Assembly (NCBI GenBank): GCA_046597175.1
Contig: JBKJKY010000003.1
Span: 1 to 55,267 of the forward strand
From: Parcubacteria group bacterium
Lineage (GTDB): Bacteria > Patescibacteriota > Minisyncoccia > Phycocordibacterales > Zambryskibacteraceae
Direction: 5' to 3'
DNA length: 55,267 nt
The notes below the pieces were generated by a model. That model was not told the DNA's origin and searched no databases. It worked only from the letters and a program-made list of their open reading frames with translations. The translations under genes and the position numbers were made by a program. This document shows positions 11,262-12,906 of this stretch, piece after piece (positions within the stretch are counted from its first letter, which is position 1; every line of letters starts with the position of its first letter).

Positions 11262-12724
11262 TTAATGAGAGTTTGATCCTAGCTCAGGATGAACGCTGGC
11301 GGCGTGGATAAGGCATGCAAGTCGAACGCCCCGCAAGGGGAGTGGCGAACGAGGTAGTAACACGTAGGAACGTACCCTTTAGTCAAGAATAACCAGTCGA
11401 AAGATTGGCTAATACTTGATAGTCTCTTCGGAGTAAAGATTTATCGCTAAAGGAACGGCCTGCGGGATATCAGCTAGTTGGTAGTGTAATGGACTACCAA
11501 GGCTATGACGTCTAGGGGAGCTGAGAGGCTGACCCCCACCGATGGTACTGAGACACGGACCATACACCTACGGGTGGCTGCAGTCGAGAATCTTCCGCAA
11601 TGGACGCAAGTCTGACGGAGCGACGCCGCGTGATTGATGAAGTCCCTCTGGGACGTAAAGATCTTTTATCAGGGAGAAAGTTTATTGATAGTACCTGATG
11701 AATAAGGGGTTGCTAAACTCGTGCCAGCAGCAGCGGTAATACGAGTGCCCCAAGCGTTATCCGGAATCACTGGGCGTAAAGGGTGTGTAGGTGGTTGTGT
11801 TAGTCTTTTGTTAAATTCTTCGGCTTAACCGGGGACCTGCGAAAGAAACGGCACGACTAGAGGATGTGAGGGGTGAACGGAACTCATGGAGTAGGGGTGA
11901 AATCCGTTGATATCATGGGGAACACCAAAAGCGAAGGCAGTTCACTGGCACATTCCTGACACTGAAACACGAAAGCGTAGGTAGCGAATGGGATTAGATA
12001 CCCCAGTAGTCTACGCCCTAAACGATGATCGCTAGTTTTTCGGAGTATCGACCCTCTGAGAGACGAAGCTAACGCGTTAAGCGATCCGCCTGGGTAGTAC
12101 GACCGCAAGGTTAAAACTCAAAGGAATAGACGGGGACTTGCACAAGCAGAGGATTATGTGGTTTAATTCGACGATAAACGAAGAACCTTACCAGGGTTTG
12201 AAACCTAACTGAATGTACCGGAAACGGATACAGCCGCAAGGCAGTTAGGCAGGTGATGCATGGCCGTCGTCAGTTCGTGATTTGAGTTGTTCCCTTCAGT
12301 GGGGTAACGAACGCAACCCTCGTTGCCTGTTATAAGTGTCAGGCGAGACTGCCCCTTCTCAGGGGAGGAAGGTGAGGATGACGCCAGGTCAGCATGTCCC
12401 TCTGATATCCTGGGCCACACACATAATACAATGGCCGGTACAACGGGTCGCAATGGAGTAATCCGGAGCTAATCCTAATAAAGCCGGCCCCAGTTCAGAT
12501 TGAGGGCTGAAACTCGACCTCATGAAGTTGGATTTGCTAGTAATCGCGGGTCAGCTATACCGCGGTGAATACGTTCTCAAGTCTTGTACTCACCGCCCGT
12601 CAACTCAAGGGAGTTGGGAGTACCCGAAGTCCTGGCGCAAGCCGGGCCTAAGGTAAGCTCAATGACAGGGAGTAAGTCGTAACAAGGCACGGGTAGCGGA
12701 AGCTGCTCGTGGAGTAATTCAATT
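11262..12724 (+). rRNA. rrs: 16S ribosomal RNA (about 1.46 kb, no large insertions)
   Basis: AGAGTTTGATCCTAGCTCAG at 11269-11288, GTGCCAGCAGCAGCGGTAATAC at 11721, GGATTAGATACCCCAGTAGTC near 11990, TGTACTCACCGCCCGTCA near 12585, AAGTCGTAACAAGG at 12673 and the helix-45 GGAA loop at 12698-12701. Both ends are approximate to within about 5 nt. Confidence 0.95.
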
Positions 12725-12906
12725 GAAAAACCCTTCTTTAAATTTATTTAAAGATTGAGTGCGTCGATATTGTGAATCTCGATCGAGTTCGCAATGGATG
12801 ATGATTATGAATCCAAAAACTAATTTGACTCATGGAAAGACATGCGCAGGTAATGCTCGAAAGGGTAATACTGAAGGGAACGGAGCAAAATAAAGAATAG
12901 TAGATC

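Follow-up and report, generated by a model that had tools for sequence, protein, structure and literature searches.

How start codons are chosen when a ribosome has lost its anti-Shine–Dalgarno (anti-SD) sequence is the question raised by a 16S ribosomal RNA (rRNA) gene in DNA from a Parcubacteria group bacterium (GenBank assembly GCA_046597175.1, contig JBKJKY010000003.1, positions 1 to 55,267; this whole stretch of 55,267 nucleotides (nt) is referred to below as the window). An initial annotation of the window, made from the letters alone, had proposed that the 3' tail of its 16S rRNA lacks CCUCC and that translation in this lineage does not depend on Shine–Dalgarno (SD) motifs. The analysis described here confirms the first proposal and supports the second. 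Alignment to a covariance model confirmed that the 16S gene is intact but that its anti-SD has been lost, CCUCC having given way to AUUCA. The explanation that very probably accounts for the observations taken together combines this intact 16S rRNA with initiation in the absence of SD pairing, at starts that appear to be leaderless, coupled to the preceding gene or preceded by G-poor leaders, and with a 16S tail that seems to be under selection and able to fold back on itself.

Loss of the anti-Shine–Dalgarno sequence from an intact 16S rRNA

The window was scanned with the Rfam model RF00177 for bacterial small-subunit (SSU) rRNA, and the 3' part was re-scanned separately. The match, on the forward strand, extends from 11261 to 12724, scores 1375.8 bits and takes in the whole model (positions 1–1533). 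The decoding region and helix 45 are intact, and helix 45 occupies exactly the span that the initial annotation had given it. Beyond helix 45 the tail of the model, GAUcACCUCCUUu (also written GAUCACCUCCUUU), aligns without gaps and with high posterior probability to GAGUAAUUCAAUU at 12712–12724. In this alignment the CCUCC positions fall at 12717–12721, where the window reads AUUCA, and the earlier description of the tail was correct in its coordinates as well as in substance. The reported lack of CCTCC ahead of the terminator holds more widely: CCTCC, CCTC and CTCC are all absent from 12681–12960, a range that extends beyond the terminator hairpin.

The SecA protein encoded in the window has hundreds of close homologues, and those that are named come from Parcubacteria, Paceibacterota or Patescibacteria. 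The 16S gene is 92% identical (over the 3' 656 nt) to that of a Zambryskibacteria metagenome-assembled genome (MAG), L045, and 90% identical to that of a Taylorbacteria MAG, L105. By these similarities the organism is placed in the candidate phyla radiation (CPR), among the Parcubacteria/Paceibacteria and near Zambryskibacteria and Taylorbacteria. With each species represented by a single genome, a scan for 16S genes whose helix 45 has the usual geometry but whose positions 1 and 5 of CCUCC hold a base other than C returned at least 120 loci, of which at least about 82 are of Parcubacteria type. Among the Parcubacteria-type loci listed are many that are labelled Saccharibacteria yet carry a Parcubacteria helix 45, together with the cultured Minisyncoccus archaeiphilus; the other loci listed are mostly from Chryseobacterium/Weeksellaceae, Sulcia and similar lineages. 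The tail type of the window, GA-N5-UCAA, is common to at least 49 Parcubacteria loci, and in L045 an identical 18 nt, GAGTAATTCAATTGAAAA, is followed by unrelated sequence. Counted over independent assemblies of both genomes and metagenomes, at least 132 16S genes carry the same tail class, and the tail can therefore be neither an assembly error nor a feature of a decaying copy.

The 16S gene also shows signs of function in its surroundings, because it has a near-consensus promoter, a leader–trailer stem with a recurring motif, and a terminator (Table 1). The predicted processing stem, of 29 bp, pairs 11207–11235 with 12876–12905, and its leader motif TTTTGTTCCGTTC is seen again in the leaders of relatives. 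No 23S gene was found within the window, and the transcription unit closed by the terminator contains nothing but the 16S gene; a gene for transfer RNA (tRNA)-Ile lies 1.1 kb downstream. Given that the data comprise one contig of the genome, and that the mature 3' end is placed by alignment only, it might be argued that what was sequenced is a pseudogene, an assembly artefact or a copy of secondary importance, and that a functional 16S with a normal CCUCC lies elsewhere. This is very improbable in view of the full-length SSU match with its intact helix 45 and decoding region; the gene's own strong promoter, conserved processing stem and terminator; the range of 16S identity (about 74–92%) over which the 132 or more independent genes keep the tail class; the apparent purifying selection on 19 tail positions; the genes of the window, which (as described below) neither carry SD motifs nor avoid SD-like motifs internally; and the prior publication of the same loss for the clade. 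Two low-scoring matches in the trailer, to RsmY (24 bits against a cut-off of 57) and to BSnc120 (19 against 114), were taken as chance hits to which the terminator hairpin gave rise.

The loss of the anti-SD itself is already known for this clade, having been published in 2022. Only 48% of Parcubacteria 16S genes proved to have a detectable anti-SD motif, and the lineages without it overlap the group that lacks ribosomal protein uL1 (Tsurumaki et al. 2022, RNA 28:1041, PMC9297842). The window represents the same clade and the same loss, and its nearest MAGs, from Zambryskibacteria and Taylorbacteria, share its tail; no ribosomal protein was found among the 20 window proteins scanned against Pfam. 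The 2022 study reports the loss of the motif and the overlap with uL1, but not the new sequence of the tail, the use of SD motifs in the genes, the spacing between promoters and starts, or a covarying fold-back. What appears, from the literature that was searched, to be new here is the −10 box abutting start codons, the lack of avoidance of internal SD-like motifs, and the conserved, covarying fold-back of the tail. In other bacteria, a survey of 128 organisms without an anti-SD, a set that held no CPR bacteria, found generally no SD motifs and in no case an alternative SD; Chryseobacterium, Elizabethkingia, Riemerella, Blattabacterium, some Mycoplasma and Carsonella are bacteria of this kind (Amin et al. 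2018, PMC6107228). In these bacteria the tail past helix 45 is likewise without CCUCC and genes have neither SD nor alternative SD upstream, but these losses are independent, occurred in other phyla and left different tails (GAACAUCUCAUUUUAGAG). Bacteria without an anti-SD were reportedly also described by Lim et al. in 2012.

Several further peculiarities of these 16S genes were observed. A second anti-SD-less Parcubacteria tail class keeps GAUCA and continues with A/U-rich sequence (GATCATTTATTT, GATCAATTAAAC), without the UCAA fold-back; it is present at eleven listed loci and others, one of them that of the cultured M. archaeiphilus PMX.108, and many loci of this class have a conserved AGTGTCG-like motif 20–30 nt past helix 45. 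In seven relatives the distance from the 5' end of the 16S to the tail is 2.0–3.9 kb, against 1.44 kb in the window, which indicates large 16S insertions in those relatives and none in the gene of the window. Seven listed loci and others are titled 'uncultured Candidatus Saccharibacteria bacterium', yet have helix 45 and tail of Parcubacteria type; the 16S of MAGs so titled is 80–90% identical to that of the window, and their taxonomic labels look unreliable. The A at E. coli position 1396, universally conserved and in a strand of the decoding region, is replaced by U at 12586 of the window (GTACTCACCGCCCGTCA, 12582–12598); every one of the 103 anti-SD-less Parcubacteria 16S sequences extending across this position (loci L003–L241) likewise has U, while the anti-SD-variant Bacteroidota keep A. 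Finally, the window 16S departs from two widely conserved stretches that generally serve as targets of universal 16S primers and probes: GCAGCAGCGG stands in place of the E. coli sequence GCAGCCGCGG, and GGGTGGCTGC in place of GGGAGGCAGC.

Selection of start codons

To survey the sequences upstream of start codons, genes were defined as the longest open reading frames (ORFs) of at least 100 amino acids, chosen greedily and without overlap, with rRNA masked. The same pipeline was applied to the window, to the loci of relatives (377 genes, of which 223 adjoin a 16S with the same tail type and 154 a 16S with another anti-SD-less tail), to 272 genes on independent metagenome contigs, and to a 50-kb E. 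coli control. SD-like 4-mers (GGAG, GAGG and AGGA) were counted in the interval −20 to −4 and in a control interval shifted 30 nt upstream. Crude as it is, this pipeline does pick up the SD signal of E. coli, where an SD-like 4-mer precedes 18 of 46 genes against 2 of 46 in the control interval, and the mean anti-SD duplex energy is −4.41 against −2.16 kcal/mol. In the window the corresponding figures are 3 of 45 against 4 of 45, and −1.32 against −2.48 kcal/mol, in agreement with the earlier remark that essentially no GGAGG-type motif stands before the start codons. Nor is there any SD enrichment before the genes adjoining the anti-SD-less 16S of relatives, whether the tail is of the same type (33/223 against 23/223; −2.40 against −2.21 kcal/mol) or of another (18/154 against 16/154; −2.01 against −2.11 kcal/mol), or in the metagenome contigs (35/272 against 26/272).

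Two further observations bear on whether ribosomes in this lineage recognise such motifs at all. SD-like motifs are not avoided inside the genes of the window: GGAGG occurs 57 times against 57.9 expected from codon shuffling (z = −0.12), and for GGAG and GAGG together z = −0.47, while the E. coli control is depleted in both (z = −3.06 and −5.98, respectively). It was also considered that the anti-SD might have been replaced and not lost, the new tail pairing with a new, lineage-specific SD-like motif upstream of starts. The strong conservation of the tail over 18–19 nt does show that it has some function. Against this, 5-mers and 6-mers complementary to the tail are not commoner in −22 to −1 than in −52 to −31 or in +4 to +25 (for 6-mers, 2 against 5 and 5 in the window, and 22 against 32 and 15 in the relatives), so that an alternative SD of this kind was rejected; the motifs that are enriched upstream are fragments of −10 boxes and not complements of the tail; and a base change in the outer part of the tail helix described below is matched by its partner within the tail, which points to pairing in cis and not with messenger RNA (mRNA). 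Replacement of the anti-SD accordingly has very little to recommend it. Since there is no SD enrichment, no enrichment of tail complements and no avoidance of internal SD-like motifs, the ribosomes would appear not to pair with SD-like sequences, and selection of start codons without SD:anti-SD pairing is supported.

The motif GGAGG is by no means rare in the window. It is present 77 times on the forward strand and 28 times on the reverse, and only one of the forward copies precedes an accepted start, that of the ORF at 13029. Its 57 occurrences in 45.5 kb of coding sequence, compared with 14 in 38 kb in E. coli, are fully explained by codon usage, because the count equals the codon-shuffle expectation. 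The initial annotation had dismissed a few apparent exceptions as coincidental. That at 24146 is indeed internal, to a gene starting at 24138; that at 5984 is GAGAGAGG, lying 6 nt before an in-frame ATG at 5994, and this ATG could be the true start of the ORF called from 5920.

In place of SD motifs, the k-mers most enriched in −20 to −1 are ATAAT, TATAA and TAAT. Of 278 pooled Parcubacteria genes, 43 have a TANNNT hexamer ending exactly 6 nt upstream of the ATG, against a background of 9.3 per position, and for spacers of 5–7 nt summed the count is 62 against 27.9 expected (Poisson p = 1.8e-8). The window alone has seven hexamers with at least 5/6 matches to TATAAT at these spacings, compared with 1.65 expected (p = 0.0016). 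The independent metagenome contigs reproduce the peak at 6 nt (25 against 6.8), and it is absent from the E. coli control analysed with the same pipeline. Base by base, A is enriched at −11 and T at both −7 and −1, which fits a −10 element with transcription beginning at the A of the ATG; G is depleted at −12 to −5. The position of the −10 box suggests that the mRNAs concerned are leaderless, and five such candidate starts in the window are included in Table 1. There are also four gene pairs in the window joined as TAA-T-ATG, and several further pairs overlap.

Taken together, these features allow a provisional scheme for initiation. For a sizeable share of the first genes in operons, a −10 box 5–7 nt before the ATG would set the transcription start at the A of AUG or beside it, giving leaderless mRNAs to which the ribosome would bind directly; downstream genes at tight or overlapping stop–start junctions could be reached by re-initiation; and the remaining genes would have A/T-rich, G-poor leaders. 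We infer that start choice is shared between leaderless first genes, coupled downstream genes and G-poor leaders. Four points weigh against so broad a reading. Starts were called crudely, as the longest ORF, which leaves assignments for individual genes uncertain; the SD tests cover 55 kb of this genome, on one contig; the exact 6-nt spacing is found in only about 15% of the pooled genes; and a promoter scan that also requires a −35 box finds 27 promoters against 32.6 in shuffled sequence, no excess. Because of this last result, the argument for leaderless mRNAs is purely one from the position of the −10 box.

The low proportion of genes with exact spacing leads naturally to the proposal that most initiation proceeds on A/U-rich, unstructured leaders, in an S1-type or accessibility-driven manner as in Bacteroidota and cyanobacteria, the start-adjacent −10 boxes being minor or incidental. 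Many window genes with long upstream gaps, for example those at 2056, 37653, 49892 and 51249, do lack a −10 box close by and have leaders rich in A and poor in G, and the depletion of G at −12 to −5 is a further point in favour. On the other side, the peak in spacing is narrow, has very strong statistical support and was replicated, and about 12–14 of the 23 window genes with an upstream spacer of at least 40 nt have a −10-like hexamer 5–9 nt before the start. The two modes are in any case compatible and not mutually exclusive, and a regime in which leaders of this kind predominate is possible but rather doubtful.

A role for leaderless mRNAs would have precedents. Actinobacteria and Deinococcus-Thermus are rich in leaderless mRNAs, with the −10 element 6–7 nt upstream of the start codon and transcripts consequently beginning at the AUG; in mammalian mitochondria, leaderless mRNAs occur together with a small-subunit rRNA devoid of an anti-SD. 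Actinobacteria and Deinococcus keep a canonical anti-SD and many SD-led genes, whereas the 16S of the window has no anti-SD at all and the leaderless state of its mRNAs is deduced from sequence only. No paper linking leaderless translation to Parcubacteria or Patescibacteria was found in an incomplete search of the literature. For this large uncultured clade, gene finding, annotation of starts and heterologous expression should not assume a ribosome-binding site, and a model that used the distance from promoter to start would better call the first genes in operons. The leaderless signature, the unavoided internal SD-like motifs and the fold-back of the tail offer concrete starting points for experiments on the remodelling of a bacterial ribosome that has abandoned SD pairing, and a cultured relative with the same loss exists in M. 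archaeiphilus.

Table 1. Positions in the window of the 16S transcription unit, of elements of the 16S tail, and of candidate leaderless and coupled starts
Feature	Position	Strand	Basis or remark
16S promoter, sigma-70-type, TTGACT-16 nt-TATAAT, 11/12 matches	10940–10967	+	promoter scan
Predicted pre-16S processing stem, leader strand, contains TTTTGTTCCGTTC	11207–11235	+	leader/trailer cofold
16S rRNA gene	11261–12724	+	RF00177 alignment; conserved 3' block extends to about 12729
Helix 45, CACGGGUAGC-GGAA-GCUGCUCGUG	12688–12711	+	RF00177 alignment of 3' part
3' tail GAGUAAUUCAAUUGAAAA, conserved in relatives; AUUCA (12717–12721) replaces CCUCC	12712–12729	+	gap-free alignment to model tail
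Candidate fold-back: UUC 12718–12720, loop AAUU, GAA 12725–12727	12718–12727	+	5' arm is the former anti-SD core
Predicted pre-16S processing stem, trailer strand, GGGAACGGAGCAAAAUAAAGAAUAGUAGAU	12876–12905	+	leader/trailer cofold
Intrinsic terminator hairpin, then T run	12907–12936	+	ends unit holding 16S alone
Leaderless-type start, TATACT, 6 nt, ATG	6607–6621	+	secD-like gene 6619–7941; TTGATT 16 nt upstream of −10 box
Leaderless-type start, TATAAT, 6 nt, ATG	8902–8916	+	gene 8914–9459
Leaderless-type start, TATACT, 5 nt, ATG	15652–15665	+	gene 15663–15992
Leaderless-type start, TAAAAT, 6 nt, ATG	23078–23092	+	gene 23090–24136
Leaderless-type start, TATTAT, 6 nt, ATG	44005–44019	+	gene 44017–44787
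Stop–start junction TAA-T-ATG, secA/next gene	43407–43413	+	also 19335–19341, 24134–24140, 29365–29371

Conservation and proposed fold-back of the 16S tail

A canonical 16S tail extends 13 nt past helix 45. Over 750 pairs of related sequences, identity at tail positions 1–19 is 0.63–1.0 and falls to about 0.3 from position 20, and on this measure the tail is evidently under selection over 18–19 nt past helix 45. Within it, positions 7–9 (N-U-C, where UC is the core of the old CCUCC) are able to pair with G-A-N' a few bases downstream, and this potential fold-back was found in 48 of 49 genome-derived tails. To test whether the partner changes too when position 7 changes, metagenomes were scanned for tails in which position 7 is not U. 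Among 82 unique tails from true 16S genes the outermost pair is U:A in 38, C:G in 22, G:C in 6 and A:U in 6, with a mismatch in 10 (72/82 paired). Register for these counts was fixed by the invariant UC and GA, the gap-free MAFFT alignment of all tails being out of register across loop lengths. In the 42 sequences with one loop length (UA 23, CG 11, AU 3, other 5) covariation scores 0.169, where shuffles average 0.059 and not one of 500 reaches that value; no pair forms at the next position outward in this subset. RNAalifold arrives independently at this 3-bp stem, with a consensus energy of only −0.15 kcal/mol. Compensatory changes thus preserve the outer pair, and the other two or three pairs are invariant and so uninformative.

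It is therefore the outer pair that carries the comparative evidence, and several facts detract from it. The fold-back has almost no stability of its own (−0.15 kcal/mol for the consensus, and 0 to about −2 kcal/mol for single sequences); variation is confined to a single pair; tails with variants at that pair were chosen on purpose when the metagenomes were sampled; and the leader of the window, at 11239–11248, offers the tail another partner. The fold-back pairing is accordingly supported by one covarying position together with strong conservation, and not by stability. In the structure proposed, the retained UC of the old anti-SD would pair in cis with the downstream GA to give a fold-back of 3–4 bp, the outer pair of which covaries. 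Two other pairings were set aside. An outer stem between tail positions 1–5 and a YGUUC motif 20–25 nt downstream, seen in several single-sequence folds, is not claimed, the motif being missing in the window and inconsistent elsewhere. The leader–tail pairing of 11239–11248 (UGAA-A-UGUUC) with 12712–12721 was not adopted as a conserved structure: among 49 relatives the best partner in the leader is found at different places and differs in strength, and some leaders lack the length to offer one.

A comparable fold-back is possible in Bacteroidota with a mutated anti-SD (e.g. GAACATCTCATTTTAGAG), as CUC...GAG at the same tail positions, 7–9. The lineages concerned are Chryseobacterium/Weeksellaceae, Sulcia, Shikimatogenerans and others (ten listed loci and more), and one of them has a compensatory variant, AUCU...AGAU, with an A:U pair.

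The weakness of the helix, which seems too slight to persist unaided, raises the possibility that it exists only in the precursor. Its 3' arm (GAA, 12725–12727) would then be part of a trailer that is trimmed away, and the helix would act as a processing signal or keep immature subunits inactive, its origin being an older pairing of the anti-SD with the spacer immediately downstream. The Rfam model stops at 12724, before the 3' arm, and the CUC...GAG fold-back of Chryseobacterium, Sulcia and their relatives extends into what would be spacer; Bacillus-type spacers, which read CCUCCUUUCUAAGGA, are able to fold back likewise. Conservation, however, runs two unpaired bases past the 3' arm and then collapses abruptly, in a manner resembling a boundary between mature RNA and spacer, and the short leaders of some relatives give the tail no other partner. 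A role confined to the precursor is a serious possibility, with a likelihood somewhat short of even.

A bolder proposal is that the ribosomes carry an SD-like helix in cis, the mature tail being about 6 nt longer than usual (19 against 13 nt) and folding back to place a permanent helix at the site of the SD:anti-SD duplex. Such a fold-back could dock on helix 26, and the parallel N-U-C at tail positions 7–9 with a downstream G-A-N' in anti-SD-variant Bacteroidota would represent a convergent solution. Helix 26, which contacts the SD helix, is still conserved, and unusually so, in Parcubacteria (PMC9297842). As it stands this proposal is unlikely; if true, a helix in cis and widespread leaderless mRNAs would mean that this large clade of uncultured bacteria begins translation in a way of its own.

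The 3' end of 16S rRNA is also the binding site of the GTPase Era, and its recognition there was reportedly described by Tu et al. in 2009 and 2011. The tail of the window occupies the same ten nucleotides as the Era site, and both adenines of GAUCA are kept (GAGUA). Era binds GAUCACCUCC, and most CPR lineages have lost Era (review, PMC10582724), with which a second constraint on the 16S 3' sequence would therefore go.

Neighbouring features

The one ORF in the window that stands behind a textbook GGAGGAG, at 13029–13346 (105 amino acids), lies in a unit (12964–13430) that is richer in G+C than its surroundings and ends at a strong terminator (13404–13430). The promoter of this unit, TTGACA-16-GATAAT, matches consensus at 11/12 positions and is the second-best sigma-70-like promoter in 4000–23999, equal in score to that of the 16S gene. 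Pfam gives no match for the ORF, the DNA resembles nothing in any of the fetched loci, and the unit could be a foreign gene or a non-coding RNA.

Further downstream, an intact gene for tRNA-Ile(GAU) at 13826–13899 is flanked by perfect 23-nt inverted repeats at 13785–13807 and 13912–13934. The first 24 nt of the tRNA are copied at 13546–13569 with one mismatch, and its 3' half has an exact 28-nt copy at 14137–14164. The resulting order of 5' fragment, intact gene and 3' fragment has the appearance of a scar that an insertion or a duplication left at this tRNA gene.

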